Positions 1,172-62,710 of a stretch of 64,000 bases of DNA are shown piece by piece; within the stretch, counting starts at the first letter, position 1, and every line of letters begins with the position of its first letter. The stretch lies in contig OX597820.1 of NCBI GenBank assembly GCA_951406725.2, forward strand, positions 36,766,001 through 36,830,000, given 5' to 3'. The notes under the pieces are model-generated. The model did no database searches, was not told the origin of the DNA, and worked only from the letters and a program-made list of their open reading frames with translations. The position numbers and the translations under genes are program-made. The DNA comes from Octopus vulgaris. Lineage: Eukaryota.

Positions 1172-2410
1172 TCATGTCTTGTCTTTCAAGTGATTTTGTC
1201 TATGACTACTCAAACTACCATTTTTTGGGAATGTTTCTCCACATATATCACAACGATATGATTTTTCACCTGTGTGAATACGTCTATGTCGAGTTAAATG
1301 TTGATTATCAGAGAAGGTTTTACCACAAATATCACAATAATATGGTTTTTCACCTGTGTGAACACGCACATGTAGTGTCAAATGACTGCTCTGGGAGAAC
1401 GTTTTGCCACAGATATCACAGTGGTATGGTTTTTCACCTGTGTGAACACGTACATGTAGTGTCAGGTGACTACTCTGAGTGAATGTTTTACCACAGATAT
1501 CACAGTGGTATGGTTTCTCACCAGTGTGAATGCGTTTGTGTTTAGATAATTTACTACTGTCAGAAAATGTTTTCCCACAGATATCACAGTGGAATGGTTT
1601 CTCTCCTGTGTGAATTCGTTTGTGACTCGTCAGAGTACCATTCTCAGAGAAGGTTTTCCCACAAATATCACAGTGGTATGGTTTCTCTCCTGTGTGAATT
1701 CGTTTATGAGTAGTCAGAGTACCATTTTCAGAAAATGCTTTCCCACAGACATCACAACGATATGGTTTTTCACCAGTGTGAACATATTTATGACTACTCA
1801 AATAAGAATTTCGGGAAAATGTTTTTGCGCAAATACCACACTGATATGGTTTCTCTCCTGTGTGAATACGTTTATGAATAGTTAAGCTATTACTATGGGA
1901 GAATGTTTTGCTGCAAATATCACAGTGATATGGTTTCTCTCCTGAGTGAATATATTTGTGTCTAGTCAAATGACCATACTGAGTGAATGTTTTGCCACAA
2001 ATATCACAATGATATGGCTTTTCACCAGTATGAATACGTCTATGATTAGTTAAAGTGCTACTTTCAGAGAAATTTCTACCACAGATATCACAATGATGTG
2101 GTCTCTCACCTGTGTGACTGTATCTATGACTAGTTAAATAACACTTTCGAGAGAATGTTTTATTACAAATATCACAATGAAATGGTTTCTCACCAGTGTG
2201 AATATATTTGTGAACTGTTAAACTACTATTATAAGAAAATGATTTACCACAGATATTACAGTGGTATGGTTTCTCAGCAGAATGAACAGCTTGGTGTCTT
2301 GTTAAGTGACTATATTTAAAGAATGTTTTACCACAGGTTACACATTGATAAATGTTCTCATCTATGTGAATATATTTATGAATAGGTAAAGAATTGCTTT
2401 TAGCAATCAT
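1172..2410 (-). CDS. C2H2 zinc-finger protein ZF1, 14 fingers
   Basis: 412-aa ORF of tandem CxxC-x12-HxxxH units with TGEKPY linkers. The ancestral leader upstream (2411-2610) is disrupted. Confidence 0.93.
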   Translation of the reverse strand: MIAKSNSLPIHKYIHIDENIYQCVTCGKTFFKYSHLTRHQAVHSAEKPYHCNICGKSFSYNSSLTVHKYIHTGEKPFHCDICNKTFSRKCYLTSHRYSHTGERPHHCDICGRNFSESSTLTNHRRIHTGEKPYHCDICGKTFTQYGHLTRHKYIHSGEKPYHCDICSKTFSHSNSLTIHKRIHTGEKPYQCGICAKTFSRNSYLSSHKYVHTGEKPYRCDVCGKAFSENGTLTTHKRIHTGEKPYHCDICGKTFSENGTLTSHKRIHTGEKPFHCDICGKTFSDSSKLSKHKRIHTGEKPYHCDICGKTFTQSSHLTLHVRVHTGEKPYHCDICGKTFSQSSHLTLHVRVHTGEKPYYCDICGKTFSDNQHLTRHRRIHTGEKSYRCDICGETFPKNGSLSSHRQNHLKDKT

Positions 2411-6871: not shown

Positions 6872-7630
6872 ACTTTAAATAAGCTAGGATAATGACAAGA
6901 ATGGTGACGATACTAATTTTTCTGGTAGTGCCCCTCTTGGTATGAGAAGCACCTGTGGTAGTGACGAGGAACACTAGGGAAGAAAATGTTGTAAAGGAAA
7001 TCGTAGGAATACTCGATCTATATGTGTATGAAGACCGGGAAATATGAAGATGTTAGCATAATAGAACCAAAAACGATGGCTTACCTAATTATATATTGTG
7101 TTAACAAGTCTGAGCAGAGATAAGAGACGAGAAATTACAAACAACGTAGGGAACAAACAATGGTTTTAATTGCTTTTGGATTTTTACCACAACTGATGTC
7201 TTTCGTTAAAGTGACGATAATTAAGTACAATAACACGATAAACCAAACTATTTATATACACAGAAACTGCTTTAGCAGTTGTGACAATACGTTACAATTA
7301 ATGACAAATATTTCAAAGTCATAAATAGTTTCTTAAACTGAGCGTCACCAATGCTTATTTTTAAATAGAAGTTAAGCCTGCGTGTAAATAACATCTCAGA
7401 ATTAATACATATTGAGGGTGGTTCAAAGATATTTGCACTAAAACATATTCAATAATTAGCTACTGATAGTAGATTAACTTACTGTTTTCTTTGTCTAACC
7501 TCATTCTTTGATGCCACAGTATTGATAGGTGAAATAAATATATAGGTATTAACAGACATAATACACTTCTTACATATTCTTTTAGCTTAATTCACTTGTT
7601 TCACAGAAAAACGTGATCAATCTATCGAAT

Positions 7631-7652
7631 AATAAGCCATACTTTCGTAAAA
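7631..7652 (-). promoter_or_regulatory. Conserved upstream motif of ZF1
   Basis: aataagccatactttcgtaaaa, the same motif as upstream of the other paralogs. Confidence 0.65.
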
Positions 7653-10005: not shown

Positions 10006-10015
10006 TATATATATA

Positions 10016-10221: not shown

Positions 10222-11079
10222 CGATGGAAGTATGGTTGATGATAAATATCAGTATGGGGGATGTGGGTGAGAGAAATAGAAATGGTTCAAGAAAGAGGAG
10301 ATGGCACACTGCAATATAGGAGGTGTGGAGAGTAGAAAGTAGGAAGATGGTGTAAGATTAAAGGGGAGTGATAAATTGTAGCAGAGATGGAGGTCAGAGG
10401 TCATCAGGGTGCCTATAGTGAGTGTGTGTGTGGTGAAGATATGAGAGGGTATTGAGAATGATAAAATGAAGTGGACTCAGGTGAATTTTCCAAAATTCTT
10501 CCCTCCTAAAATACGTTTCTCCACAAATTTTATATATTCAGAATCTACATGATATAACACAAATTCGTAGAAAATTTCATTAAAAAATATCCATTTTTCT
10601 GAAAGTTATGATCCCCCAAATTCGGTGGGCTGGGGATTCTCTTTAAACACATAGTTTGCCTTTGGTAGGAAATATGTCATCAAAGTGGAGTGAATTACTT
10701 CTCAGACAAATTTAAAGATCCTGCATATTTAATTCTCAACTTAAGCATCTTTTAATTCCATTTTCTTTTTATTGCAAAATGAAATAAAGTTTTTTTCCTT
10801 GCAGTCTTGCTAATCACGAATAGCACTATTTCAAACTTCCTGGGAATGATCGGCATGATGTAATTCAGAAGTTAATCATGTTAAATCCCACCTTCTATGA
10901 AGTTACAGATTTTTGAGGGACGATAACAGACATGAAATAGTTCAAAAAACATTTTTCGTGCTTTGTTTCTTTCTGCTTTTTCTTTCTAATTTGTCAGCTG
11001 TTCAGCAGTCATCTTCCTTTATGTTCTTCAATGGCTGCACTAATTCTGTGTAATATATATATATTAATCTTTTATATAA

Positions 11080-11477
11080 TCTTTTACTTGTTTCAGTCAT
11101 TTGACTGTGGCCATGCTGGAGCACCACCTTTAGTCGAGCAAATCAACCCCAGGACTTATTCTTTGTAAGCCTAGTACTTATTCTATCAGTCTCTTTTGCC
11201 GAACCGCTAAGTTACGGGGACGTAAACACACCGGCATCAGTTGTCAAGCGTTGTTGCGGGGACAAACTCAGATACACAAACATATACACACACACATACA
11301 TTCATATATATACATATATACGACGGGCTTCTTTCAGTTTCCGTCTACCAAATCCACTCACAAGGTTTTGGTCGACCTAAGGCTATAGTAGAAGACACTT
11401 GCCCAAGGTGCCACGCAGTGGGACTGAACCCGGAACCATGTGGTTCGGAAGCAAGCTACTTACCACTCCTATGCCTA
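11080..11477 (-). mobile_element. Full-length tRNA-derived SINE
   Basis: Near-identical to 8596-8987. Confidence 0.9.
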
Positions 11478-12139
11478 TATATTTTTTTTTTTGTGATACA
11501 AATATGAGGAATGTCTACACTTGTTAATTGATAAGTTTTACCAATATAGTTTAACAAAACCACTCTGAATTATTTCTATAAGTTTAAATTTGTTTAAATT
11601 ATGCAAATTACCTACTCTGAGTCTCTCGGATACAGAAGATAAAGGGACAATTTTCATGCTACTGAGGCAGAAACGGGTGACTATGTGTTCTTATCTCAAG
11701 ACAATAAGTCTGCTCCTTTCCTAGTGGCATATCAACATTGGAGAATTCTTGAGATTATTCTCCCCTTATAATATAGAGCTGATCTTGATTGGTACTTGGT
11801 AATTATGACACACACACATCCTCTAGAAACAGAGACCATTTTTATTAATTGAAAATATATGCTGTATAGTATTAGATATACTTCTGTTTGTATATGCTAT
11901 TCCTTTTATTGAACTGGGTACTCATTTAGTTTTGCGGGTTTTATGTGCAGGTAGATGCATGTGACACACACTGGCCAAAGATGTACACAATTCCATATAT
12001 GTATCTTAAATAGATTGATATTAATATAGTTGCTGGTTATGGCTGGCCTCCTGCCACCCACCCACTAATTTAAGAACCTAGTGATGGGTAGCAGTAAGAG
12101 GATTTTGAATTTTTATAGAGATTTTCAATGTTGCATCTC

Positions 12140-13060
12140 CCTATTACAATGAGCTTTGGCAGCCAGCAGATTTAAGGGACACCACTACTTAATGCTGGGA
12201 CCTAATACCTGCAAAAGGAATTGCCACTGTAAAGTCATTTGGTTTACTCCACCCTTTTCACTCAACATCAAGACATACATGGGAAGGATATTCCTCAGAT
12301 TAGTGAACAAGCACTTCACGTAATCCCATAGATATGGATTTTTATTTAATAGAAACAACTTAAGGGTCTCTTTCAGCTGTATGTTCAGTGCTAAAAAAGA
12401 TTTCAGTGAGCACCCCTAAACCCTGCACAGAAGCAGGATGCCCCTAAGGCTGTGGTCAAGGAGGCTGAGGTGGAGTCTGGCAGTAACAGTTGTGATAGCA
12501 GCACCAACAACGTATCCAGCGGTAACAATGATTGCAGCAGCAGCAGTAAGAGCAACATTAGTAGTACATCTGGCAGCAGTTGTAGCAGTACATCTGACAG
12601 TAACAGCAACACTGGCATTGGTAGTGGTAGCAACAGCAACAACTGCAGCACCAACATCGTATCTAGCAGCAATAGCAACAGCAACAACAGCAGCTGCACC
12701 AGCAACATGTGTAGCAGTAGTGCAAGGATCCAGACACAAAGATATGTTGGGGCAACAGAGAGCCCCTTCAAGCGATGTCTAAACAACCACAGGTCTTCTT
12801 TCAGGATCCCAGAGAGGTGCAATGATATATTATTGGTCAGCTGTGTATGGCCTTTAAAAGAATAGGGGATGTCATACAATATTAAACAGTAGCTCCTGGA
12901 ACAACCTGGACCATACCTTAATGAGAGTAGATAATGTAAACCTTGCATGGCCAAGAGAGCAAGGATCCTGAAGAACTTGCTTAACCAAGAGGCCTTCTTA
13001 AACTCCAAAAGTGAAGTATTTAGTTAATGCCCTCATCAGAGGAAATTTATGTTGAAAAAC
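12140..13060 (+). mobile_element. Penelope-like element 3' fragment (GIY-YIG region), pseudogenised
   Basis: KVIWFTPPFSLNIKTYMGRIFLRLVNKHF and YVGATESPFKRCLNNHRSSF motifs, interrupted by stops and a trinucleotide-rich tract. Confidence 0.75.
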
Positions 13061-15826
13061 ATGGAATTCCCCACTATAGCTATGTAAGCTGTTCCTGTGC
13101 TTACAGCCACAACAAGTCACAACAATTTTTAATAACATCCTATTGTAGGAAATAATTATAACTATTGGACAATTTTAATTACAAAATAACTATTTACAAT
13201 GAAAAATAAGCGCTACAGATTGTGGATATTTTTTAACAATTATTTTTTGTAAAATGATTTTATCTATAAGACAATTTTAAATATAGAAATAACTTTTAAT
13301 ATAAAGTAAGTCTAACGAATTACAATTTTAAACATAGAATAATTCATAATATAAAAGACAAAAATAAAATTTCAATTCAAAAGTTTATTTTAAAAAAGAG
13401 GCATGAAGATCATTTGGGCCATACCCTTATGATTTTTCCGTGCAATGGAATCTAAATTTATTTTATAATTTTTAAGTTAATTACACCTGATAAATGTTGA
13501 AGTGCAAAATTACTAAATTCATGTGATAACAGAATTGCATTTTATCTAATAGAAGTTCATCTTCAACATTTAGATGTTTTGAACAAACATTTCCATTGAA
13601 TTGTTAAATTTGAGCTGTGTTAATATTGGATTTTATGACTGATTTAATTTCATTGTTGGAACAAGCACAACTTCAAATATGTCCGAGAGCCATGAAATAT
13701 GTATGATACTGCAAAACTAAAATGCAGTGACACCATCATGCACTTCTAGATTGAACTGTGAAACTGCTTCAGCGGCTTGGATACTCTTTAACAAACTGAG
13801 TCCAAGGCTGAAAACCAGTAGCACAATTTTAAGCATCACATGTAAAGATTAATAACTCAAGAATTCAGGTTTACCAGGAACAAGCAAAAAGATTGGACAT
13901 AAGACTGCACTACAGAATTCATTGAGAGTTATAATTGTGCTTGGACACCATTAACTATCAAGTACTCAAAAGACAAACAATTCATTTTGCCTATGCTGGT
14001 GACAATGAATACTGTTGCTCTGGACATGAAACAGGTAGCTCCTGTTGAGGACTCATGAAAACTGAACCAACTTAAGTCAACTGTGAAGGGCTACCTATCA
14101 ACAAAAAAAAAAAATTCTTGGTATTCAAGGCGTAATTATTTTGAATTTTGAAGAAACATCACAGTCAATGATGTGACCATTTTATGACCCTACTCAACTA
14201 TGATTTGTTCATAGATACTACTCCTCACATATTATGAGTGCCTAAAATATAAAGGTGTGCAAATCTAACCACAAACTGAAGAACAAAGCCCCAGGTGTAG
14301 ATGGTTTGTCTGGCAAAATCCTCACAAATTATTTCAATGTCTTGTTTTCCTGGTTGTACAGTGTAATCACCTGCATCTAGGAACAGGAGACTTAAAATCT
14401 CTCCAACAAGACTGGAGTGACACAAGTCTCCTCTCTTTCTTTAAGAAGTATGATACATATTCTTGCAACAATTAATGAGGCATCGCAGCCAAGATATTCA
14501 CTGTCATTCTACGACAAAATTTCTCCATGAGCATCAACACAGAGCACAAAATCAGTACAAAAATCTTTGCTGATGCTCCATGTTTTGGATTTTGTGTCAA
14601 ATTCTGTTTGTTGTCATTGATAGAGTGATTCTTTTCAACAGCTCTTGCTCAAAAGATACCTCCCTGGGTTTTGGTAATGCATTCTGCTGTTGACAAAACA
14701 AAGTCATTTCTGATGTTACACCAGAGTCCTTCCCAGAATGACTTAAATGGTAAGGTAGACAGCTAAAAAGAGAATTAGTATGATCAAACTGGATCTTGAA
14801 TCAATGTATAGCATCTGCCATTAGAATCATGACTGGCATCAGGCATATGTGATTACATAGCATGGTCAGCTTCTGTGGATTCAGTTTCAGTTTTAACAAT
14901 ATATATATATATGTTTGTGTCTCCTTGTCATTAACATTGCATATTTGTAAATGAGTGTCAGTCATTTCCCTATTCAGCAAAAAACTTATAAGGCCATGGA
15001 AAAATATTACTTTGCTTGGAAATAAATGAGGGTTGGTGACAGGAAGGACATCTGGCCATCATAAGAATGCCTCAACAAACTCATGCAAACATGCACATTA
15101 AAAATGATAACAATGATGATCTATAATAGTTTAAATGCAGTCATCTGCAAGGGAACTCTTTTCAATTAAGACCTGACTTTTAAAGTAAATCACCCTTCCA
15201 GCTACACAAACTTACTATACTATAAATAACTGATAAAAGATATACATTGTAGATTATTGCAACTTCAATTTAAAGTCACAAAAGTAATTCCGTTACGAAA
15301 CACAACTATTGTCAGCTCATAACATTTTAATAGTGACAGATATCAGTGTAAGCAGATAAAATATTAAAATTTAATTATAAAATACATCAACTTTATTTGT
15401 TATTTAAATAAATGATCCCATTTATACATGTAAATCTATATACACTTCTTTAATCATGCTGAAGAATGTTCTGGAAATTCTCCAGATTGTGTTGGAGAGA
15501 GAAAAAAAAGAAAGTATAGTTTGTAAACATTGCAAATCAGTAAAATTATTTTTTTATTAATCAGTGAATGAAAAATTTTATTGAAAATTTTCTTAACTAT
15601 GTAAAATATTTGGGTGATATATAAAACAAATTTTTAGAAAATTAACAGTTAATAAAAATTACAACACACTGATTTATAACTTTTTGCAAATGTTACAAAA
15701 TATTCTTAAATAATTCAAGTAATATTATATAAACATGTCTTTCGTTAATTTTCTGTGATGTTCTTCAAACATTCATGGTATTAATTCCATTATGTCATAA
15801 AGTAATAATTTTACAAATTCTTTTAA

Positions 15827-17089
15827 TTATTTCCCTTGTTTTACAGTCTGTTTTTCATGTACTTTTTGTTTGTGATTAGTCAAAATTTTATTCTTAGAGA
15901 AAGTCCTACCACAGATGTTGCAGCGATATGGTTGCTCACCAGTGTGAACAGGTCTGTGGCGAGTTAAATGCTGATTATCATAAAATGTTTTACCACAAAT
16001 ATCACAACTGTATGGTCTCTCACCTGTGTGACCACGTACATGAATCTTTAAATGTGTATTCTGAGAGAATGTTTTACCACAGATATCACAGTGGTATGGT
16101 TTCTCACCAGTGTGAACCCGTACATGTTGAGTTAAATGAACATTCTGAGAGAATGTTTTACCACAGGTTTTACAGTGGTATGGTCTTTCACCTGTGTGGA
16201 TGCGTATATGATTAGTTAACCTACTACTACGAGTGAATGTTTTCCCACAAATATCACAGTGGTATGGTCTAATTCCTATGTGAGCTTGTTTGTGACTAGC
16301 CAAACTATAATATGCAGAGAAGGCTTTCCCACAGATATCACAATGGTATGGTTTCTCACCAGTGTGGGTACGTCTGTGGACAGTCATGTTACCTCTTCCA
16401 GAGAATGTTTTCCCACAGACATCACAACAGTGTGGCTTTTCACTTGTGTGAATGTATTTGTGAACATTTAAATTAGAACTTCGGGAGAATGTTTTACCAC
16501 ATATACCACACTGATATGGTTTCTCACCTGTATGAATACGTATGTGATGAGTTAAGCTGTCAGTCTGAGAGAATGTTTTCCCACAGATATCACAGTGATA
16601 TGGTTTCTCACCTGAGTGAATATATTTGTGTCTACTCAAATGACTTAGCTGAGTGAAACTTCTCCCACAAATATCACAGTTATATGGCTTTTCACCAGTA
16701 TGAATACGTCTATGATTAGTCAAAGTACTGCTGACAGAAAAGGTTTTGTCACAAATATCACAGTGGTGTGGTTTCTTGCTTCTGTGAATAAGTTTGTGTC
16801 TAGTCAAATATGAATTTTGAAGGAATACTTTACCACAAATTAAGCATTCAAAATCTTTTTGATCTGACTGAACACCCTTTGAGAATAAACGAGTTTTTGC
16901 AATTGCTTTGCTGTAAATTTTTTTAACCTTAAGGCTTGTAAGCAGTACATTAGACTGTGTAAATGTTTTCTTATGAATGTCAAAGGGACATGATTGCTTT
17001 TGTACATCTACATGTACCAGATTAGATATGTCATTGGATTCAGGCTGTGTTTGATCATAAACCTGGTTTTCACAAAGCTTTTCTTCCAT
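15827..17089 (-). CDS. C2H2 zinc-finger protein ZF2, 12 fingers, MEEKLCE leader
   Basis: 420-aa ORF with an ATG start, a leader of about 80 aa, then 12 canonical fingers. Confidence 0.95.
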
Positions 17090-18518
17090 AATTTTCTTCT
17101 TTCTTCAATGATATATTTAAAAAAAAGGAGATTGATTTATAATGTTCAATGAAAGGTAAGCAAATTCTATGAAACTTCTTAAATACTAAAGTTAGAATGA
17201 ATTTTCTTTTACAATAAAAGTTGAGATTTCACAAAGTCTGAAGATATCTCCTTCATAAGGAAACAATTACAAGATATTTTATTAGGACAGTTTCATTTCC
17301 TAGAGTTCAATATTGCAAACAAAAATCAGCAAATAAACAAACTCCAGTTCTCGTGATCCACTCTGATATGAAAAGACATTATAGATAAACCAAATTGAAT
17401 CTTCATGTTCTATGTCTCTGTTACAATCTATTGTGTTCTTGATATAATGATAATCTTCTGTTTTCAAAATCAAATTTCTTGATATCAGCAATTACTATTT
17501 CAGTATCTACACAAATCCTGAAGTGAAGAATATAATGATATAATGTAGAACGGACGTTATGTACAGAGAACAGACACAATAGTACAGACATACAGTGAAA
17601 ACAAATGAAAATTTTGAAGGGAAAAAAATACAGGGATAATAGATTTAGACAAGCAGAATATTTTTTATTAGTGTTAAAATATAGAAAGTTTAGAGTAATA
17701 GTATGTATAAACAGATTGATTTAAATGTCTTTATATCCACCTATCCATGCTAACAGAACCACCTCTGTTTACTACAAGAGAGCCTATATGTAATTAATGA
17801 ATGCGAGAAATAGGAGCCAAATATTCCTGGAATTATAACCTGTCTTGAAAATGAAATGTAGCTTGAGAAAAAGTGGGCTGGCGTGTTATAGAAACCTAGC
17901 TCAAACTCGCGCACTTTTATGTTGTTTCAGTGTTTTGTTTAAATAAAGGAGAAACAAATTCTTTATTTAAGGAATGTTCTGTTTTCAGAATGTCTCAAGA
18001 TAAGATTTCTAATATGGCACTTTTCCTGTCGTATCATAGAATGGTTAATACATGTTAACACAAAAACTATTTGAGGTAGTTATCGTTTTCGTCCGCACGA
18101 TCTGATTTGGTTTGAATTTCCAACATTAATGTAGTTTTACATGCTAGTCATGAAAATTACATTGTTTTTTTTTTTTTTCACACTATTTAAAAATGAAAAT
18201 GTTACAACCCTTTAAAATTCGAATTTTTTTGCTAGTTTTAGCCAATAGAGATTAAACATAAATGTAAATAACATCTCACCATTAATACATATCGCGGATT
18301 GTTACAACAAAGTTGTTTGCACGAGAAATACTAAAATATCCTGTTCAGCAATTAGCTATTGACAATAGATCAACTTACTGTTTTCCTTCCGTATTTTCAT
18401 ACTATTTGATGCAATAATATTTAGAAATGAAGTGAAATCCAACATCTTGCTCCTTCCATGAACTCAAAATCGATGACAGATCAACTTGAAATTCATTAAT
18501 ACAGAGCTGATGAATGTA

Positions 18519-18545
18519 TCATTAGCCGCCATTTCGTAAAAAAAA
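18519..18545 (-). promoter_or_regulatory. Conserved upstream motif of ZF2
   Basis: tcattagccgccatttcgtaaaaaa. Confidence 0.65.
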
Positions 18546-18644
18546 TAATCCTTATAAACTTAAATGATTGGCTTTATTGCATAACAGAGGGTTCATAGAT
18601 TGACTGTTGTTATCGAATGATTTCATTATTTAAATTTTATAAGG

Positions 18645-18790
18645 GCAATGAAATGGCAGAATCGTTCGACTGTTGGTAAAAATGCGTTGCACCATTCGTT
18701 TCGGCTCTTTAAACGTTCTGAGTTCAAGTTCCACCGACGTCAACTTAGCCTTACATCGCTCCAGGGCCGATAAAATAAAATACCAACTAA
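18645..18790 (+). mobile_element. Degenerate SINE 5' region (second family)
   Basis: tggcagaatcgtt A-box-like and gagttcaagttcc B-box-like motifs, followed by gataaaataa..tacca. Confidence 0.6.
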
Positions 18791-20041
18791 GTCTGTGTGT
18801 GTGTGTGCGTTGGTCATTCGGTAATGTCTGATTATTTTTTGCGACTGCTACTGTGTTGGGCCGTTCATATTGAATATGTGGTTCTATGTTGGCTGCTCGA
18901 CTGGCGCAAGTTAACTGCTGACTGTCTGCTTGTCTCTTGACAGTCCACCTGGTGATGGCTACTTTCCCTCTGCCGTATGTCTGACTGTATTTATAATGGT
19001 CATGACAGCTAGAAGGACAGACACACCACAGGAGTAATTTCTACCTGTGTAGGTCGCCTCCTGTCCACTTGAACCTTAAATGACACAACTCAGGTTTTAT
19101 GTCGAAGAGAAATCCATCCATCACTTTTTGACAGGACAACGAAATTTGTTTCACGCCTGTTTGGCCAGTGGTGGATCAAACGAGCGAGAATCATTAGATT
19201 CGATTTCGAATTTCAGCTCGGAAAAAGGAAGTGCTAGTTTTTACAAACTATATTAACTAATGTGTCTTTTTTAAGACAGTACGGTGTGATTTGGTTGCTT
19301 TTGCTTTTTTCTCTTAAAATGAAACATTTGGTTTTCGTTTCTGTATTTCATGTAATTCTTGATGTTTTTATATCCCGCCCCCAATCTCCACGGAAAATTT
19401 GCCGTACTTCTTCACATTCACCAGTTTCTGGATAGAACACTTTACTCCACATTCTTTCATTTAGACTTCTCTCTAAATCTTTCTTGGGCAGTCGGAGGAT
19501 GGCTGCTATCTGCCACGACATTATTTGTATGATGTCTCTCAAAGAGGGATAATGTATTTCACTAAACGCTACAGAAGCATTATTTCTTTTCACATCTTAA
19601 TATGCAACAGGACTTTCTTTCCAGCCTAATTTCTTGATCATTACAACCATAATGAAAGTTAGACACTTTCACAGATATATATTGTTCTGAAAAACTTAAA
19701 CTCCTACTTCAACTGTTGTTTATTGTAGAGCTGAGGCGATTTTCCTTTTCGACTTGCACTTTAGATTAAATACCAAAAAAATATGGATATTAGTGTCTTA
19801 CTAATGTTTTCTCAAGAAAGAAATTCAAGATTTATCTTGAGAGTTGGGAGTACTATTGAAGCTATCATCGAATCCATCAATAAAACAAATAAATCAACGG
19901 TGTAGTCCTGTGGGAACAGTGTTCCCTTACATTTTCGGAGAGGGGAAACAGTGTTACCTCACTATTGCACAGAAATCCAAGCTTAAAATTGTGTAACGTA
20001 TTGAAAATGTCCACCTTTAAAATTACTTTTGCTTCAGCTGA

Positions 20042-20083
<42 letters not shown>

Positions 20084-20094
20084 AATATCTCTTT

Positions 20095-20425
20095 GAAAAT
20101 CAAAGAAAAAGAAGATATCTATGGACAACCGCTTCGAAACCTCCAGCTTCTATATCCAGACTATGAATTCATATTCATACCAATAATTGGAGCACTAGGT
20201 TTTGTTAGTAATTGCTGGGAAAACTGGGATTTTCAGAAAGAGAAATCGACCGGCTTATTCGTACAATTGCAATCTGTAAGTGGAACAGTAAAAATATGCA
20301 AGACTTTTCTCAAGTTCCAAATGTGAATTTGCCTGTGTTAACTACATCCCAAAGAGGGAACTTTGTATCATTGTTGGAAACCGGCTCCCTTCTCAGTGGA
20401 AGATCTATAATAATTTTAAAAAAAT
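20095..20425 (+). mobile_element. R4/Dong-like (RLE-type) non-LTR retrotransposon 3' end
   Basis: EKEDIYG..LRNLQLLYPDYEFIFIPIIGALG..LGF..LQSVSGTVKICKTFLKF resembles RLE-clade C-termini; flanked by (CA)n and (GA)n. Confidence 0.65.
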
Positions 20426-21613
20426 AGAAGAAACACATACAGACAGAGAGAGAGAGAGAGAGAGAGAGAAAGTGAGTGACGGTGGGGAACGTATATTCAA
20501 TATCAAAGACGTCCACACATTCCATACACAGTCTTGATAAGCGATTGTCTTTTGAGAGACACAAGGGAACGAAGGGGCTGACAGAATTCACACACACATC
20601 CATCCATCCAGCATCTTCGCCCACCATTCCTAGGAGGGGGGTCATTGGGATAGAGTCCTCAGGTACCTCCTCCATCAGAAGCAACTATCATTAGACTTCC
20701 AGATGGATTCCCAAGTGTGACCATATGAGACGAGAGATATTATCCAACCATATCGTTCTTAGTTTACTCCAAGGTCTCCTATAGGTTGGCTTAGCTTCAA
20801 GTGTCTATCTTGCGATTATTTCCTGCGGTTTTCTGATCAAGTGTCCAGAGCTGTGACCTTTTATCGCAGGGAAATTGGGGCTCGACCTGGAGAGAGTCCT
20901 TCATCTTGGAGCTACATACCTCGCTCGGTCCTGGAACCGAAACTACAATCTTAAAATCATGAGTGCAACATCCCTAACCACTAAGCCACACACCTCTACA
21001 TTATCTAAAATGTATCTGGAAAATTTCATGAAAAAATGACTTGAAAAAGATGCATGGTAACAAGGCCGGAAAATTTAATTGTGCCAGTAGTTGGTGCAAA
21101 TTACGGCGCACATGTTGATGTAACCCGACCCCTTCCCCACTTAAAAATTATTTTTATTTTTACGGAAACCCACATTTTCGACTATGGAGATTCCGATTCT
21201 GAGAAAAAAATTGGCAAAATCGCAACTTCAAAATTTACCCCCCCCCCCACACACACACACGCATTTTTTTTATTTTTCGCTTTTTCAGAAATTTTTTTAG
21301 GCGAAATACAGAAACAAACAGAAAAATACAGAGATTATGATTCTGAAAAAAAAAAAAAAAAAAAAATTGCTGCTAATGTCGCTGGCCATTAACTGTGGCA
21401 ATGTCTTTGTTATTTATGTCTGCAGACGCATTTGAATACACCGTTCGGACTCTTATTACCTCCCCTCCCATTTTCTTTCGTTGCTAATTTCACTTTTTCT
21501 TTTCTTTGTTTCCTTGTTGAAAGAATCTAGGGGCTGCTATTTGGATGGTTGGATTCTATTTTCACTTATATTTTTCTAAAGCGAAAGATCGCTTTAATTT
21601 TTCGATAATATAG

Positions 21614-21636
21614 TTTTTTTACGAAAGAAAACTTAG
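21614..21636 (+). promoter_or_regulatory. Diverged upstream motif of ZF3, inverted with the gene
   Basis: tttttttacgaaagaaaacttag; the TTTTACGAAAG half is kept and the GGCTG half is lost. Confidence 0.45.
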
Positions 21637-22164
21637 TAATGTCTGGATAAAGATTTATCGCTTGATTTAGTCTGACAACGAATTTGTCCAAATGTTTATA
21701 ATTTCTATCAATTTCATTAGCTTCTTCTGTCCGTCAATGTTATTACGAAATGCAAAAAGAAATATTATACTAAGTGACGAGAAATTACATAAGCCTAACT
21801 ATCAACAGACTGTATTTTCGGGTATTTATTATCTTTTTTAGTTTCTTTCCCTAAACATTTGTAACTAATTTTTTTCTTTATATTTTGCCGATTCCACAAG
21901 TTTCTTTCTTACACGCACGCACACACACACACACGCACCAAAATTACTTGAGTTTAAACCATGATAATCTTCATTTTTTTTTTTGTTTCCTTTAATATGC
22001 TTCTGAACTTCAAACAGCGAGTTAGAACATACTTGGGGAATCCGTAAACTTTTATTAATCGTATAACATATCCTGAATCTCGAGAATTAGTTATTTTTAA
22101 TCCAATCCTTATGACTTGAGGGTGTTAATATAACATGGGTACGCCACACATCCACTTTACTGGC

Positions 22165-22482
22165 ACTCCGCGGATTCCGACGAGTGTTCTGGTTGATCCA
22201 ATCAATGGAACAGCCTGCTTGTGAAATGAATGTGCAAGTAGCTGAGCACTCTCCTGACACGCGTACCTTCACGTAGTTCTCAGGGAGATTCAGCGTGACA
22301 CAAAATGTTACAAAGCTGGCCGTTTGAAGCATTGGAACAACTCATTTTTTGCCACCTGAGTGAACTGGAGCAACGGGAAATAAAATGTCTTGCTCAAGGA
22401 CAGAACTTGTCGCCATGAATCGAACTCATAATCTTACGATCGTGAGCCGAATACTCTAACCACTAGGCCATGCGCCTTCACT
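22165..22482 (-). mobile_element. tRNA-derived SINE (third family)
   Basis: Minus-strand head TGGCCTAGTGGTTAGAGTA..GAGTTCGATTC (A/B boxes) and a cttgagcaagaca core. Confidence 0.7.
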
Positions 22483-23637
22483 ACACGCTCACTGGGCATT
22501 TGGGAAAGACACATAGTGCTAGTCTTACACTCACCTGTGACATGAGTCTGTTCATTAGTTTGTGTTTGAATCATGCATTAGGACTCCTTGCCAAATTCAA
22601 CATTTTTAGTTTTACCTTCATAGAATTAGAGTACATAATCTAATATATGAAAATTCCGAGACATTTCATAGCCAAACGGCACAGGCACAAATTTGCTAAT
22701 GGGACAGGACACCGGGACATATGGTATCTCTTTTTCCCCCTACGATGAAATTTATATGGAATGATTAGCATTAAGTAAGCAGGAGTTTTCTAGCCCCCCC
22801 CCCCCCCCTGCACTGCAGCAGGCCGAGTCAGTTACTAGTCTTTATAGAAAGACAAAGTCAAGCACAGCAGTGTATAAGTTGTTGGGTCTTCTATCCCTTA
22901 TGTCAGAAACAATGTCACTGACTCTGACTCAGTTTCCCCAGGCATTCCCTTTCTACCACTTTCTCCAACAAGTAGTAGTAATAATCCTTTCTAAAATAGG
23001 CTCAAGGCCTGAAATTTTACAGGAGAGGACTAGTTGACTATATTGAAACCAGTGCTCAGCTGGTACTTATTTTGTCAACTCCAAATGATGAAAAGTAGTA
23101 GTAATAATGACAGCACAGATATAGATGGCAATTCCATCCTCATATAAGTCCACCACACTATTCTAGATTACCTAAGCCCAGTAAGCCTGTGTTATATTTT
23201 TTGTTACTTTTTTATTATTTATTGATTGTATGTTAATAAACTTCATTGTAAATATTATTCTAACCATGAAACAATATTATTGAGTGTTTAAAAATTGTTT
23301 GTAGGTGATATTAGGGAGACAATTTTGTGATCATGCAATGAAACCTATTTTTTTGACATATTCTATTATTAATTTATCACGGATTCATTTAACATATTCT
23401 TTTTTTAAAACCAAACCCCCATGATAAACAAGGATAGACATGCATATATGTGTGTGTATGTTCTGTGTGTGCACACACAAATACAATAGGTTTCAATTTC
23501 TGTCTACCAAATTAACTTACTAAGCTTCAGATGGCCTGGAGCTATAGCAGAAGACGCTCATGTGAGATGCAGTGAGATTGAACTTATAGATGGTGGATTG
23601 GTCCATTTAATGCGACTCACTCAGAAGGCTATAATAT

Positions 23638-24887: not shown

Positions 24888-26140
24888 ATATCATTTAACA
24901 GGAACAAGGTACAAAGAAATACATGAAACAAGGTGGTGACTTTAAATGTCTTTAATGCTGGCCCCAAATATATATACACAAGCTGAATGAAAATGATTGA
25001 TGGATATTTATTCATACATCTACATGCATTTGCATGGGTTGTATGTTAGCTGTTAACCCTGGTGAGGAAAGCTCATGAACAGCGATATGTTAGAACCAGT
25101 GCAGTATGTTGGTGCTCTTTAGATGTTGTTGACAACGTTGGTGAGAGACATGATGGTGGCAACAAAGATGGAGGTCACTGCAATGTGGTCAGTAGTTAGA
25201 CCTTAGAAGGTCTGGAACCAACAGACTCCGAACTAGAAGGAGGTGAGTTTTTATAGCTGATGGTAGGCTCAACTAGTGTTTAGAACAGACTGTCTCACGT
25301 GTTTATATGGAGGCTGTGATTGGTTGTGTTGCATATTGGTGCGCGATAGAGTAAGAGACAAATACCAACCAATCAGAGTGGTAGACACAACAGGGTCCAA
25401 AACAGTGCTCAAAGGTTAGCTGTCACCTTCTACATTCGTATGTATATATATATATATATATATAAGAGAGAGAGTAAGTTCACTACAGACAGTCCCCCCA
25501 CCCCCAAGTCATTTTGTGGGAGACAAAATAGATGATAAAAGGAAGATATTTCTGTAGCAAAGAGGTGAGATTAAATAAAGAAAATTTCTCATTTGTAAAT
25601 TTGCAACAAATATGTTATGTTTCTAAATATTATCAACACTGTTGCAATCTACTCCATTGAAAGCCTACCTCTACAAAATTTCATTAAAAAACGTGTATTT
25701 TTCAGAAAGTTATTGTCTGGCACCAAGCCTTGTATATGCCCTCATTATACACCACTATGTTAACCCCCTCTCTTTATACAATATAAAGCATGATTGGATA
25801 AATCAATCAACCAACAATTATTTGGTTATTATAAAGAGATTTTGTCTCATTTTTTAATTTTTATTTCAGATTTTCTTTTGACATTGAGAGAACATCAACA
25901 AATGTATGAAATTTTAAAGACTGCTGAATTACATTATCATCAAGAAAGCTTGTGACAGTTTATCTAACTATGATTAAATTACTGTAAAAAATTAAATTTC
26001 ATTAATAATTGTGGTGTTGATTGGAAATATATTAGTTGGATGGTGATGGTCATATTGGAGAAAATTTGACATTACACCAGAACTATATTTTTGTTGTGTC
26101 TGATATTTGTTTCTTTGAAATATTGGCAAAAGAGTAAATT

Positions 26141-27253
26141 ATGGAAGAGAAACTGTGTAGGAGTGAAGTTCATGGTGAAAAACACTCTGATAATCTTTGT
26201 GTATCTAATCAAACAATGTACATTGAAAAGAAATCAAATCTCAGTGGTAACAATGGTAAAATATTTGCACAAAGAACTAACACCTCAAAACATAAGATAC
26301 TCAACACAAGCCCACTCCGTTACCAATGTGAAATTTGTGGTAAACGATTCCTAATAAAAAACTTTTTGTCTTTACATAAATGTATTCACACTTCAGATAA
26401 ACTATATCACTGTGACACCTGTGATAAAACATTCTCTGAGAGAAGTCAGTTAATTTGTCATATATGTTTCCACACTGGTGATGGATTATACAACTGTAAT
26501 ATTTGTGGTAAAACATTCTGTGCGAGAGGCAAATTAAATCGTCACAAACGGATTCACACAGGTGAGAAACCATATTACTGTGATATCTGTGGCAAAACAT
26601 TCTGTGGGAATAGTAATTTGACTAGTCATAAATGTGTTCATACAGGGAAGAAAGCATACCACTGTGATATTTGTGGTAAATCATTTTCTCACAATAGTGC
26701 TTTGACTTGTCATAAACGTATTCACACAGGAGAGAAACCATATCACTGTGATATCTGTGGTAAAACATTCTCGCATACTAGTGGTGTAACATGTCATAAA
26801 CGTATTCACACTGGTGAAAGACCATACCACTGTGATATTTGTAATAAAACATTCTCCCACAACAGTGGCTTAACATGTCACAAACGTATACACTCAGGTG
26901 AGAAACCATACCATTGTGATATCTGTGGGAAAAATTTCTTTCAAAGTGGTAAATTAACAATCCATAAACGTCTTCACACAGGTGAGAAACCCTATCACTG
27001 TGAAACCTGTGGTAAAACATTCTCACGACATGATAGCTTAAACATTCATCAACGTTTCCATACAGGTGAGAAACCATATCACTGTGATATCTGTGGGAAA
27101 ACATTCTCTCAGAATACTCATTTGACTAGTCACAAACGTATTCATACTGGTGAAAAGCCATACTGCTGTGATATTTGTGGCAAAACATTCTCTCATAGTG
27201 GAATTTTATCAAATCATAAACACATTCACACTAGACATAAAGCATGGCACTAA
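26141..27253 (+). CDS. C2H2 zinc-finger protein ZF3, 11 fingers, inverted cluster member
   Basis: 370-aa ORF starting MEEKLCR, 11 fingers, acceptor ttttatttcag ending at 25869. Confidence 0.95.
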   Translation: MEEKLCRSEVHGEKHSDNLCVSNQTMYIEKKSNLSGNNGKIFAQRTNTSKHKILNTSPLRYQCEICGKRFLIKNFLSLHKCIHTSDKLYHCDTCDKTFSERSQLICHICFHTGDGLYNCNICGKTFCARGKLNRHKRIHTGEKPYYCDICGKTFCGNSNLTSHKCVHTGKKAYHCDICGKSFSHNSALTCHKRIHTGEKPYHCDICGKTFSHTSGVTCHKRIHTGERPYHCDICNKTFSHNSGLTCHKRIHSGEKPYHCDICGKNFFQSGKLTIHKRLHTGEKPYHCETCGKTFSRHDSLNIHQRFHTGEKPYHCDICGKTFSQNTHLTSHKRIHTGEKPYCCDICGKTFSHSGILSNHKHIHTRHKAWH

Positions 27254-31534: not shown

Positions 31535-32686
31535 TCATAGTACCATTTTTAGAAAATGCTTCTTCACAGACATGGCGCTGGATGTGTTGCCTGTGTGAAC
31601 AGGTCTGTGACGTGTTAAACTCTGCTTATCAACATATGTTTTACCACAAATATCACAATTGTATGGTCTCTCACCTGTGTGACCACGTACATGAAGTGTC
31701 AAATGACTGCTTTGAGAAAATGTTTTACCACAGATATCACAGTGGTATGGTTTCTCGCCTGTATGAATGCGTAAATGTTGAGTTAAATGAGCATTCTGAG
31801 AGAATGTTTTATCACAAATATCACAGTGATATGGTTTCTCACCTGTGTGTGTGCGTATATGTCTAGTCAATCCAGTTCTGTCAAAGAAGGTTTTCTCACA
31901 AATATCACAGTAAAATGGTTTATCTCCTGTATGAACCTGTTTGTGAATAGTTAAAGTTTGACAAGCAGAGAAAGTTTTTCCACAGATATCACAGTCATAT
32001 GGTTTCTCACTTGTGTGAATACGTTTGTGATGAGTCATGTTACCTCTTTGAGAAAATGCTTTTCCACAGACATCACAGCTGTACGGCTTTTCACTTGTGT
32101 GAATGGATATGTGTCTATTCAAATAAGAACTTCCAGAAAATGTTTTAGCACAAATACCACACTGATATGGTTTTTCTCCTGTGTGAGTTCGTTTATGAAT
32201 AGTTAATTTATGACTTTGAGAATATTTTTTACCACAGATATCACAGCGATATGGTTTCTCACCCGAGTGAGAATATTTGTGTGTAGTCAAATGAGCTTGC
32301 TGAGAGAATGCTCTCCCACAAATATCACAGTGATATGGTTTTTCACCTGTATGAATACGTTTATGCTTAGTTAAATTACCGCTGTCAGAAAAGGCTTTGT
32401 CACAGATTATGCATTGATAAACTTTCTTATCCTTCTGAACATTTTTATGCAAAGATAAAGAACTGGTTTTAGCAATTGTTTTACTATAAATTTTTAAATA
32501 TTTAAGCTTTGAGCTTTTATGAAGCAATTTTTGCTTAAATAAGGTATCAGATTGTGTGAATGTTTTCATATCATTGTCAAAGTAATCTGATATCTTCTCT
32601 GTATCTTCATATGTCTGATAAGATATGTCACTAGATTCAGACTGTGTCTGATCACAAGCCTGACTCTCACACAGTTTATTCTCCAT
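31535..32686 (-). CDS. C2H2 zinc-finger protein ZF4, 10 fingers, frameshifted tail
   Basis: 383-aa ORF starting MENKLCE with 10 fingers. A remnant of an 11th finger lies in another frame. Confidence 0.93.
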
Positions 32687-35560: not shown

Positions 35561-35583
35561 CTATCAGCCGTATTTTCGTAAAA
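35561..35583 (-). promoter_or_regulatory. Conserved upstream motif of ZF4
   Basis: ctatcagccgtattttcgtaaaa. Confidence 0.7.
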
Positions 35584-40772: not shown

Positions 40773-41876
40773 TTATTTGCGTGCATGAACAGGTTTGTGA
40801 CGGGTTAAACTTTGATTATCAGCATATGCCTTACCACAAATATCACAGCTGAATGGTCTTTCACCTGTGTGACCACGTACATGAAGTTTTAAATGACCTC
40901 TCTGAGAAAATGTTTTACTACAGATATGACAGTGGTATGGATTTTCACCAGTGTGAATACGAACATGTTGAGTTAAATGACCATTCTGAGAGAATGTTTT
41001 CCCACAGATATCACAGTGGTATGGTTTCTCACCAGTATGCATGCGTATATGTCTAGTTAATCCAGTACTCTCAGAGAATGTTTTCCCACAGACATCACAG
41101 TGGTATGGTTTCTCTCCTGTGTGAACTTGTTTGTGACGAGTCAGTTTATTATATTCCGAGAATGTTTTCTCACATATATCACAGTGGTATGGCTTCTCAC
41201 CAGTGTGAGTACGTTTGTGAACAGTCATATTGCCTCTCTGAGAGAATGTTTTCCCACAGACATCACAGCTATATGGTTTTTCCCTTGTGTGAATGTATTT
41301 GTGTCTTTTCAGATAAGACCTTCGCGAAAATGTTTTAGCACAAACACCACATTGATATGGTTTCTCTCCTGTGTGGGTTCGTTTGTGAAGAGTTAATTTA
41401 TCACTTTGAGAGAATCTTTTGCCACAGATATCACAATGATATGGTTTCTCACCTGAGTGAGTATATTTGTGTGTAGTCAAATGACCTTGCTGAGAGAATG
41501 CTCTCCCACAAATATTACAGTGGTATGGTTTTTCACCCGTATGAATACGCTTATGCTTGGTCAAATTACTGCTGTCAAAGAAAGTTTTGTTACAGATTAT
41601 GCATTGATAAACTTTCTTATCCTTCTGAACATTTTTATGAAATGACAAAGAGCTGGTTTTAGCAATTGTTTTACTATAAATTTTTAAATATTTAAGCCTT
41701 GAGCTTTTATGAAGCAATTTTTGCTTAAATAAGGTATCAGATTGCGTGAATGTTTTCACATCATTGTCAAAGTAATCTGATATCTTCTCTGTATCTTCAT
41801 ATCTCTGATAAGATATGTCGCTAGATTCAGGCTGTGTTTGATCACAAGCCAGACTCTCACACAATTTATTCTCCAT
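40773..41876 (-). CDS. C2H2 zinc-finger protein ZF5, 10 fingers, close paralog of ZF4
   Basis: 367-aa ORF with a leader nearly identical to ZF4 and 10 collinear fingers. Confidence 0.95.
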   Translation of the reverse strand: MENKLCESLACDQTQPESSDISYQRYEDTEKISDYFDNDVKTFTQSDTLFKQKLLHKSSRLKYLKIYSKTIAKTSSLSFHKNVQKDKKVYQCIICNKTFFDSSNLTKHKRIHTGEKPYHCNICGRAFSQQGHLTTHKYTHSGEKPYHCDICGKRFSQSDKLTLHKRTHTGEKPYQCGVCAKTFSRRSYLKRHKYIHTREKPYSCDVCGKTFSQRGNMTVHKRTHTGEKPYHCDICEKTFSEYNKLTRHKQVHTGEKPYHCDVCGKTFSESTGLTRHIRMHTGEKPYHCDICGKTFSQNGHLTQHVRIHTGENPYHCHICSKTFSQRGHLKLHVRGHTGERPFSCDICGKAYADNQSLTRHKPVHARK

Positions 41877-44618: not shown

Positions 44619-44642
44619 TCATGAGCCGTACTTTCGTAAAAA
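44619..44642 (-). promoter_or_regulatory. Conserved upstream motif of ZF5
   Basis: tcatgagccgtactttcgtaaaaa. Confidence 0.7.
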
Positions 44643-50279: not shown

Positions 50280-51524
50280 TTATCCATGTGCCTTTTCTTT
50301 ATGATGAGTCAAGCTCCTACTCTCAGAGTAAGTTTTACCACAAATATCACAATGATATGGTTTTACACCAGTGTGAACAGGTTTGTGACGGTTTAAATTT
50401 TGATTATCAGCATATGATTTACCACAAATATCACAGCTGTATGGTCTTTCACCTGTGTGACCACGTACATGAAGTGTTAAATGACCTTTTTGAGAGAAGG
50501 ATTTACCACAGATATCACAATGAAATGGATTTTCACCAGTGTGAACACGCACATGTTGAATTAAATGACCATTCTGAGAGAATGTTTTCCCACAGATATC
50601 ACAGTGGTATGGTTTCTCACCTGTATGCATACGCATATGCTTAGTTAATCCGCTACTGGCAGAGAATGTTTTGCCACAGATATCACAGGGGTATGGTTTC
50701 TCACCTGTGTGAATACGTACATGTTGAGTTAAATGACCATTCAGAGAGAATGTTTTGCCACAAATTTCACAATGATACGGGTTGTCACCTGTGTGCACAC
50801 GTACATGCCTAGTTAATGTACTATTGTTTGAGAATGTTTTTCCACAGGTATCACAGCAGTATGGGTTGTCACCTGTGTGCATGCGTAGGTGTCTAGATAA
50901 TATACTATTGTTTGAGAATGTTTTTCCACAGATATCACAATAAAATGGTTTATCTCCTGTGTGAACTTGTTTGTGATTAGTTAACTTATTACACACAGAG
51001 AAGGTTTCACCACAAATATCACAATGATATGGTTTTTCACCTGTGTGAATACGTTTGTGAACAGTCAAATTACTTCTAACAGAGAATGTTTTCCCACATT
51101 CATCACAATGAAATGGATTCTCACCTGTGTGAATACGTATATGTTGAGTTAGATGACCGTTCTGAGAGAATGTTTTCCCACAGGTGTCACAGTGGTATGG
51201 TTTCTCTCCTGTATGCATGCGTATGTGTTTAGTTAATCCACTTCTATCAGTGAATCTTTTTCCACAAATATCACAGTGGTATGGTTTTTCCCCAGTGTGC
51301 ATACGTATGTGTGTGGTTAATCTGCTACTTTCAGAGAATGTTTTACCACAGATATCACAGTGATATGGGTTGTCACCAGTGTGCACACGTACATGTTTAC
51401 TTAATGCGCTATTGCCAGAGAATGTTTTCCCACAGACATCACAGTGGAATGGTTTCTCAACCATATGAGTACCTTTGTTATTAGTCATACTATTTCTTTT
51501 GAGGAATGTTTTTTCCAGAGACAT
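50280..51524 (-). CDS. C2H2 zinc-finger protein ZF6, 14 fingers, leaderless
   Basis: Open frame with 14 intact fingers. The first ATG is at 51524; the track start at 51527 is GTG. Confidence 0.88.
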   Translation of the reverse strand: MSLEKTFLKRNSMTNNKGTHMVEKPFHCDVCGKTFSGNSALSKHVRVHTGDNPYHCDICGKTFSESSRLTTHIRMHTGEKPYHCDICGKRFTDRSGLTKHIRMHTGEKPYHCDTCGKTFSQNGHLTQHIRIHTGENPFHCDECGKTFSVRSNLTVHKRIHTGEKPYHCDICGETFSVCNKLTNHKQVHTGDKPFYCDICGKTFSNNSILSRHLRMHTGDNPYCCDTCGKTFSNNSTLTRHVRVHTGDNPYHCEICGKTFSLNGHLTQHVRIHTGEKPYPCDICGKTFSASSGLTKHMRMHTGEKPYHCDICGKTFSQNGHLIQHVRVHTGENPFHCDICGKSFSQKGHLTLHVRGHTGERPYSCDICGKSYADNQNLNRHKPVHTGVKPYHCDICGKTYSESRSLTHHKEKAHG

Positions 51525-53984: not shown

Positions 53985-54008
53985 TCTTCAGCCGTATTTT
54001 CGTAAAAA
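53985..54008 (-). promoter_or_regulatory. Conserved upstream motif of ZF6
   Basis: tcttcagccgtattttcgtaaaaa. Confidence 0.7.
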
Positions 54009-59563: not shown

Positions 59564-60292
59564 TCAGATTAATTCTTTTATTGCTTGCTGTCCATGTGCC
59601 TTTTTTTTATGATTAGTCAAACTCCTATTCTCAGAGTAAGTTTTACCACAAATATCACAATGATACGGTTTTACACCTGTGTGAACAGGTTTGTGACGAT
59701 TTAAATTCTGATTGTCAGCATATGATTTACCACAAATATCACAAGTGTATGGTCTTTCACCTGTGTGACCACGTACATGGAGTGTTAAATGACCTTTCTG
59801 AGAGAAGGATTTACCACAGGTATCACAGCGAAATGGATTCTCACCTGTGTGAATACGTACATGTTGAATTAAATGACCATTCTGAGTGAATGTTTTATCA
59901 CATATATCACAGTGATATGGTTTCTCACCTGTGTGGATGCGTACATGTTGAGTTAAATGAGTATTCACCGAGAATGTTTTCCCACAGATTTCACAGTGGT
60001 ATGGATTGTCACCTGTGTGCATGCGTATGTGTCTAGATAAATTACTCTTGCCAGAGAATCTTTTTCCACAAATATCACAGTGGTATGGTTTCTCACCTGT
60101 GTGCATGCGGATGTGCTGAGTTAATCTATTACTGACACAGAATCTTTTACCACAGATATCACAGTGGTATGGGTTATCACCAGTATGTATGCGTATGTGT
60201 CTAGTTAATGCACTACTGCCAGAGAATGTTTTCCCACAGATATCACAATAGTATGGATTCTCACTACCCTGAGCACCTCTGTGATTAGTCAT
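59564..60292 (-). CDS. C2H2 zinc-finger protein ZF7, 8 fingers, N-terminally truncated; sister of ZF6
   Basis: 242-aa ORF with 8 intact fingers. Its C-terminal four fingers are nearly identical to those of ZF6. Confidence 0.85.
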   Translation of the reverse strand: MTNHRGAQGSENPYYCDICGKTFSGSSALTRHIRIHTGDNPYHCDICGKRFCVSNRLTQHIRMHTGEKPYHCDICGKRFSGKSNLSRHIRMHTGDNPYHCEICGKTFSVNTHLTQHVRIHTGEKPYHCDICDKTFTQNGHLIQHVRIHTGENPFRCDTCGKSFSQKGHLTLHVRGHTGERPYTCDICGKSYADNQNLNRHKPVHTGVKPYHCDICGKTYSENRSLTNHKKKAHGQQAIKELI

Positions 60293-62470: not shown

Positions 62471-62710
62471 TCTTCAGCCGTGTTTTCGTAAAAAAAAGAC
62501 TTTTTTTCTCATTATTTTGTGTTGTAACACCGAGTGATGGTCTGATCTGTGTATGTATATATATATATATATATAAAGAGAGAGAGAGAGAGATGATATA
62601 CTCAATTTATGTGCAGTCAACCAACTTTATTTTCACAAAATCTACGTGACATACTTTAATACCAACTTAATCCATCAAATCATCAGCCGCACTTTCGTAA
62701 AAAAAAAAAA
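62471..62710 (-). promoter_or_regulatory. Two copies of the upstream motif of ZF7
   Basis: tcttcagccgtgttttcgtaaaa at 62471 and tcatcagccgcactttcgtaaaa at 62680. Confidence 0.7.

Follow-up and report, generated by a model that had tools for sequence, protein, structure and literature searches.

The 64,000-nucleotide stretch of the Octopus vulgaris genome analysed here (contig OX597820.1; "the window" below) contains seven C2H2 zinc-finger genes, six of them on the minus strand. An earlier note on this DNA had proposed, as a hypothesis, that a conserved triplet of late fingers in these six genes is predicted to bind a motif upstream of the same genes, which would make the cluster an auto- or cross-regulatory network. 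The question raised by the locus is whether the triplet is kept to read this motif or for other targets.

The C2H2 cluster and its late finger triplet

The fingers of each gene are contained in one coding exon, and the 79 C2H2 fingers of all seven genes are spaced at 84 nt. They are tandem Krueppel-type fingers, with the pattern C-x2-C-x12-H-x3-H, 28-residue spacing and TGEKP-type linkers, and in ZF2 Pfam zf-C2H2 was matched in 12 stretches. The genes are located as follows.

1172-2440, minus strand: ZF1 open reading frame.
15827..17089, minus strand (gene 15827-17104): ZF2 coding sequence, 420 aa, 12 C2H2 fingers, with an 80-aa leader without a Pfam match.
26138..27253, plus strand: ZF3 open reading frame, 11 fingers.
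31535-32704, minus strand: ZF4 open reading frame.
40773-41903, minus strand: ZF5 open reading frame.
50280-51542, minus strand: ZF6 open reading frame.
59564-60301, minus strand: ZF7 open reading frame.

The octopus origin, the tandem clustering of seven genes in 64 kb and a leader match to an Octopus sinensis protein place the cluster among the octopus-expanded C2H2 genes, and it is an ordinary member of this expansion. The match came from a leader profile search, in which the single protein found among 989 candidates was from O. sinensis and near-identical to the ZF3 leader; no other match to a full leader was convincing. A further leader profile search gave 12 representatives; P0121, P0122 and P0127, whose sequences were read by eye, resemble family members, and all of them are short and never reach the triplet. 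With the ZF2 leader alone as query the count was 0 of 19 candidates, and the best 120 of 3,111 matches in a full-length protein search were unrelated C2H2 proteins, mostly of vertebrates. Exact sequence look-ups found 0 of 8 on record, metagenome contigs contained 0 matches to a DNA pattern specific for the family, and a solved-structure search returned generic C2H2 relatives and nothing closer.

The leaders of ZF4 (32417-32686) and ZF5 (41607-41876), both on the minus strand, share 93% protein identity, and several middle fingers of the two genes differ at base-reading positions; the likeness of these 80-90 aa leaders suggests strong constraint or conversion. Contigs of 2,615 and 2,644 letters span the end of ZF2 and reach about 2.4 kb past 15800, on the minus-strand side below 15800, which suggests a long 3' UTR for this gene.

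The C2H2 genes of octopus genomes number far above a thousand; in O. bimaculoides, 1,453 have been counted (PMC12513265), and many of the octopus-expanded C2H2 genes described there likewise lie in tandem. The available portion of that paper (Holzinger et al. 2025, PMC12513265) names the discovery of binding sites as a next step and describes no binding motif, promoter element or autoregulation, unlike the predicted pairing treated here. Tandem paralogs with variable base-reading residues, as in this cluster, are also described for KRAB-ZNF and FiNZ-ZNF clusters in the part of PMC10547256 at hand. The octopus cluster differs from these in its scanned leaders without a Pfam effector and in a fixed three-finger core in all six paralogs, and no transposon target was found in the window. 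The accessible text of Wells et al. 2023 (PMC10547256) predicts an enrichment of octopus ZNF motifs in transposons.

As had been claimed, late fingers of the types Q-1/H3, Q-1/H3 and D-1/Q2/R6 were found in all six minus-strand genes, and the place given for them in ZF2 (15900..16200) holds its fingers 9-11, at 16112-16174, 16028-16090 and 15944-16006. The change reported at position 3 of the D/R finger was also observed, with H, H, S, S, N and N in ZF1, ZF2, ZF4, ZF5, ZF6 and ZF7, respectively. The wording QxxHLT for the first finger was too narrow: Q-1/H3 is present in all six genes, but ZF6 and ZF7 have I instead of T at position 5.

1274..1504, minus strand: ZF1 triplet, fingers 11-13, H at position 3 of the D/R finger.
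15944..16174, minus strand: ZF2 triplet, fingers 9-11, Q-1/H3/Q6, Q-1/H3/I6 and D-1/Q2/H3/R6.
31595..31825, minus strand: ZF4 triplet, with S at position 3 of the D/R finger and a frameshift by which the following finger is lost.
40785..41015, minus strand: ZF5 triplet, S at position 3; the reading frame stops directly after the triplet.
50373..50603, minus strand: ZF6 triplet, N at position 3; the gene is without the family leader.
59681..59911, minus strand: ZF7 triplet, with N at position 3, in an array whose last 8 fingers remain intact.

Selection on the triplet was measured with uncorrected proportions in the four collinear genes ZF1, ZF2, ZF4 and ZF5. At positions -1, 3 and 6 the triplet fingers had an identity of 0.78-0.83. 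Of the seven other fingers, six had 0.17-0.39 and the seventh 0.78. The triplet was the best of 8 consecutive three-finger runs, and its identity of 0.81 was reached by 2 of 120 three-finger subsets. The statement that the middle fingers vary passed over one more collinear finger, located eight places ahead of the D/R finger, which is also Q-1/H3 in all four genes. Non-synonymous difference at positions -1, 2, 3 and 6 was 0.13-0.18 in the triplet, compared with 0.28-0.51 elsewhere, and the synonymous difference was 0.38-0.45 in the triplet and 0.39-0.55 in six of the other seven fingers. Since synonymous divergence in the triplet is normal, its conservation is attributed to selection and not to recent copying; since framework identity is alike in the triplet (0.72-0.81) and in the other fingers (0.72-0.79), the extra constraint sits on the base-reading positions. 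These comparisons point to purifying selection on the base-reading residues of the triplet. In the six variable fingers, the ratio of non-synonymous (-1, 2, 3, 6) to synonymous difference was about 0.5-1.2, uncorrected.

Losses on the N-terminal side (ZF6 and ZF7) and on the C-terminal side (ZF4 and ZF5) all spare the triplet. The ZF7 leader and early fingers (60290-61060, minus strand) are broken by stops and frameshifts, with the last 8 fingers open, and the ZF6 leader is lost (51525-51735, minus strand); both genes would start at a Met at or just before the remnant of an internal finger.

The conservation could be only apparent if the array ends, lying by unique flanks, were less subject to shuffling or were homogenised by gene conversion, and Q-1/H3 were simply common in the family. 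Q-1/H3 is indeed found in 18 of the 79 window fingers, and one other collinear finger has a low synonymous difference of 0.15. We nevertheless regard this account as highly improbable, given that the synonymous difference of the triplet equals that of the middle fingers, that its gene-terminal neighbour, the true last finger, is variable or lost, and that D-1 with R6 is rare (7 of the 79 window fingers, six of them at the triplet position, and 6 of 1,324 fingers of other proteins fetched).

Another account holds that the triplet is kept for contacts with RNA or a partner protein and not with DNA, so that a code prediction would be irrelevant. A Pfam scan of the ZF2, ZF3 and ZF4 leaders at E 0.01 found no family, and no KRAB, SCAN, BTB or ZAD effector domain, so on this account a cofactor surface must lie elsewhere in the protein. 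Unusual framework residues are also present in the triplets of five of the six genes, namely, in the second finger, a Gly that precedes the last His and, in the third, a Pro between the histidines. Against this, the extra conservation lies at helix positions -1, 3 and 6 and not in the framework, and the three fingers are joined by linkers of canonical type, which makes non-DNA contacts an unlikely reason for the conservation.

The shared element and its place in transcripts

The motif before the genes belongs to a 20-base element, TTTTACGAAAnnnyGGCTnA, of which the window contains 7 copies against 0.40 expected, a number reached by 0 of 100 shuffles. Each minus-strand gene has one copy except ZF7, which has two, and the element forms the start of a paralogous block of about 400 nt, located 1.45-5.2 kb before the coding starts. 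The fractions in the following list give the agreement of each 9-mer with the seven bases predicted for the triplet.

7630..7652, minus strand: ZF1 copy, 9-mer GGCTTATTA at 7630-7638, 5/7 predicted bases.
18519..18541, minus strand: ZF2 copy, GGCTAATGA, 6/7, 163 nt before a donor-like site at 18378.
21617..21626, plus strand: ZF3 half element, TTTTACGAAA (the first ten bases), without the GGCT half.
35561..35583, minus strand: ZF4 copy, GGCTGATAG, 5/7.
44619..44641, minus strand: ZF5 copy, GGCTCATGA, 6/7.
53985..54007, minus strand: ZF6 copy, GGCTGAAGA, 7/7.
62471..62493, minus strand: ZF7 proximal copy, GGCTGAAGA, 7/7.
62680..62702, minus strand: ZF7 distal copy, GGCTGATGA, 7/7, a local duplicate 209 nt away.

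All the 9-mers that the earlier note had listed were found on the sense strand; the copies are real, but the list left out that of ZF1 itself. ZF3, as claimed, lacks both partners, having the half element only and no D-1/R6 finger. A microsatellite separates the two copies at ZF7.

Fifteen of the 20 columns of the element are invariant in all seven copies, compared with 41 of the 148 columns without gaps in the rest of the block. At the block background, ten invariant columns of ten have P=3e-6 and at least five of six P=0.0075, for columns that were picked after looking. The invariant part of the element ends at GGCTnA. Paralog identity is 39% upstream, 79% in the element and 71% after the donor, and the likeness starts abruptly at the T run of the element in all copies (e.g. 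18542 and 35584). Differing repeat-like inserts lie upstream of ZF1, ZF3 and ZF4; the stretches at 7660-8260 and 21150-21360, just upstream of the ZF1 and ZF3 elements, are related, repeat-rich and partly inverted, and are possibly remnants of DNA transposons.

The invariant half of the element might also be read as a C/EBP-like site. An interpretation as a YY1-like site or a start codon was rejected, since the core concerned is present in one copy only. The reverse strand of the invariant half, TTTCGTAAAA, contains TCGTAAA, which is given as a posterior HOX/CDX (HOXB13/CDX2) site in the portion of 10.1101/205906 at hand; this is a likeness of sequence only, and serves as a lead.

The position of the element in transcripts was assessed with contigs from four sequencing runs over 15800-35799, a range that takes in ZF2, ZF3 and ZF4; none of the runs is recorded as RNA, and the contigs reveal neither transcript start nor strand. 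Three of the four runs yielded contigs in pieces consistent with splicing. In the case of ZF3, an exon with its end at 21820 is connected to 25869 in two runs, whose contigs start at 21443 and 21522, so that the half element at 21617 lies within these spliced contigs of non-coding exon 1. The ZF4 element is contained in one contig that connects 35432-35799, and likely sequence beyond, to 33165. Three ZF2 contigs cover exon 2 to 17516 and continue for 97, 117 and 161 extra letters, which we infer to be exon 1 because of the donor-like site at 18378; the longest would then end within the element, in its run of T. Over 18539-19015, run X13 has a contig that extends upstream of the ZF2 element at a depth of 19.7, compared with 50.4 for the spliced contig, and that suggests an upstream start or an overlapping transcript.

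The element is thus best called start-proximal, lying in exon 1 of at least some transcripts. The description of the motif as upstream is right with respect to the coding starts, but in ZF3 and ZF4 it falls within spliced non-coding exon 1 contigs and is not simply upstream. Such a place would also suit an element that acts on RNA, as a 5' UTR hairpin or a protein site, and a short U-A stem with a UACG loop can be drawn. Over 8 copies, however, z-scores ranged from -1.87 to +1.02, the structures differ with no shared fold, and an Rfam search of the window gave no match, so we consider a role in RNA very unlikely.

Predicted reading of the element by the triplet

The standard code gives GGC-nGA-nGA for the triplet. 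The earlier note had added a further A from Q at position 6, but specification of A by this residue is weak, and it was not used here. In engineered modules, D-1/H3/R6 corresponds to GGC, D-1/N3/R6 to GAC and Q-1/H3 to GGA (PMC7317221, the portion with Table 1), and Q-1/H3 modules are listed for AGA and TGA (PMC3607563, table). Because these published modules agree with the code, it is reasonable to predict GGC-nGA-nGA as the site of ZF1 and ZF2.

The majority element, GGCTGATGA, agrees with the prediction at 7/7 bases. In 5,000 column shuffles of the 36-column alignment, the observed value was reached 0 times for the mean over all copies (6.14/7), once for the lineage-weighted mean (5.80) and once for the majority match. 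Full matches by chance numbered 68 when the majority sequence of the 501-nt block was shuffled 20,000 times, and 316 among 20,000 shuffled 450-nt windows. The exact predicted pattern has 4 matches in the 64 kb against 2.22 expected, a count reached by 22 of 100 shuffles and thus no enrichment; three of the four are copies of the element. The relaxed pattern GnCnGAnGA has 25 matches against 12.5 expected (rank 1 of 60 letter permutations) with an order-2 background and against 13.9 (rank 4 of 60) with an order-3 background. This enrichment was dropped as support, in view of the order-3 rank and of paralogous copies that inflate the count. On the plus strand, a candidate second site, an antisense G(A/T)CTGA(A/T)GA that fits the relaxed prediction, occurs at 17236, 32825 and 42002, at the homologous place in the exon-2 5' UTR of ZF2, ZF4 and ZF5.

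The conservation of single bases follows the prediction only in part. The predicted bases G1, G2, C3 and A6, and also T4, are invariant in all copies, but over five lineages the number of different bases is four at G5, three at G8 and two at A9; for free columns, the probability that all three vary is 0.38. The residues predicted to read G5, G8 and A9 (His and Gln) are invariant in all six genes, and G2 never varies, though its predicted reader changed in four of the six. Nor does each gene fit its own site: ZF1 and ZF2, despite their predicted GGC reading, have sites of 5/7 and 6/7, and the fingers of ZF6 and ZF7 predict GAC at 7/7 sites that read GGC. The three perfect copies all come from ZF6 and ZF7, a close pair (support 86/91, the rest of the tree being unresolved).

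In the predicted complex, the TTTTACGAAA half of the element would lie towards the C-terminal end of the array, where there is at most one finger, variable or lost, and ZF3 keeps this half without the triplet. With no finger to read the best-conserved half, another factor must explain it. Gln reads adenine, and a cross-strand reading by Q2 could account for T4, both being invariant, a fit that was noticed after the fact. A cross-strand contact of position 2 is described in the portion of PMC4330361 at hand, which also gives code predictions as significant for about 46-60% of natural proteins; for KZNF motifs, 11 of 236 were predicted significantly according to the accessible part of PMC10547256.

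A probable anchor module, possible feedback and their meaning

The account that we favour, with little better than even confidence, is that of a conserved anchor module with targets mostly outside the cluster, next to a co-duplicated element that is read mainly by other factors. The tandem-duplicated octopus C2H2 genes would keep the three late fingers by selection as a shared DNA-anchoring module, predicted to bind DNA and to read G(G/A/n)C-nGA-nGA at targets mostly beyond the cluster. The fast-changing middle fingers would extend and retune the site of each paralog on its 3' side, and the H-to-S and H-to-N changes would shift the middle base of the 5' triplet. TTTTACGAAAnnnyGGCTnA would have been co-duplicated at the likely transcription start as a putative promoter element, and its code fit would be due to chance, or would mark an ancestral feedback site that selection no longer fully holds. 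Such a partly relaxed ancestral site is intermediate between an anchor module and feedback.

The conserved triplet, its normal synonymous divergence, the constrained element and the exon 1 place of the element in ZF3 and ZF4 are observed directly. Together with the sparing of the triplet in gene decay, the free variation of G5, G8 and A9 and the lack of a finger for the TTTTACGAAA half, they speak for the anchor module. The 7/7 majority element, the four invariant predicted bases (G1, G2, C3 and A6) and the T4 fit speak against it. So does the joint absence of the D/R finger and the half-site in ZF3, yet this happened only once, in the gene most distant from the others. As a further point against it, an outside target for the triplet was sought in the window with the relaxed pattern, and none was identified: 4 matches lie in 7,355 interspersed-repeat bases and 13 in 38,424 other bases.

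Feedback within the cluster is the other account to be weighed. In it, the triplet would bind the GGCTGAWGA half of the exon-1 element, with ZF1 and ZF2 as the strongest readers, ZF6 and ZF7 as the best targets, and weaker sites as dose sensors. The 7/7 match of the majority element with its low shuffle rates, the code assignments supported by engineered modules in the consulted parts of PMC7317221 and PMC3607563, and the three element copies among the four exact matches in 64 kb argue for it. A parallel is the C2H2 factor ZNF143, which has low-affinity, autoregulatory sites located downstream of where its transcription starts (Ngondo and Carbon 2014, PMC3936768, as far as the available text goes), the arrangement that feedback requires here; the element probably likewise lies downstream of at least some transcript ends. 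In ZF3 and ZF4 the candidate site lies within exon-1 contigs that give neither start nor strand. ZNF143 differs in that, in the same available text, its binding and feedback are experimentally shown for one conserved gene, whereas binding in this cluster is predicted, and across paralogs.

Several results count against feedback. G5, G8 and A9 are unconstrained, the predicted GGC readers ZF1 and ZF2 have imperfect sites of their own, and the genes with 7/7 sites carry D-1/N3/R6, which is GAC in the published modules. The perfect copies are confined to the closely related ZF6 and ZF7, and code predictors are weak on natural proteins (PMC4330361 and PMC10547256, in the parts at hand). The proposal of auto- or cross-regulation therefore fared unevenly: the standard code together with an improbable match makes the hypothesis deserving of a test, but autoregulation is at odds with the conservation of single bases and with the way fingers and sites pair in each gene. 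A prior of a few percent for such an element being read by the product of its own gene, raised about tenfold by the match with the poor footprint allowed for, leads by our own estimate to about one in four, and we hold feedback to be possible but doubtful. In its fuller form, which we put forward just as tentatively, an ancestral gene would have bound its own first exon and the site would have been copied with each duplication; ZF1 and ZF2 would read the sites of their siblings, best at ZF6 and ZF7, and the siblings with S or N would have escaped to new targets. ZF1 and ZF2 may thus cross-regulate ZF6 and ZF7.

A literature search, over titles and the beginnings of abstracts of mostly non-subscription papers, found no cephalopod C2H2 motif or autoregulation of such kind. 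The cluster narrows the question of octopus C2H2 binding sites to one three-finger peptide and seven natural 9-mers. If feedback were true, a cephalopod-expanded C2H2 factor would for the first time have a defined DNA target, and a fast-growing transcription factor family that has no known repressor domain would carry its own brake on dosage. Should there be no feedback, the combination of a fixed core of three fingers with changing middle fingers is still a possible route by which the paralogs diversify.
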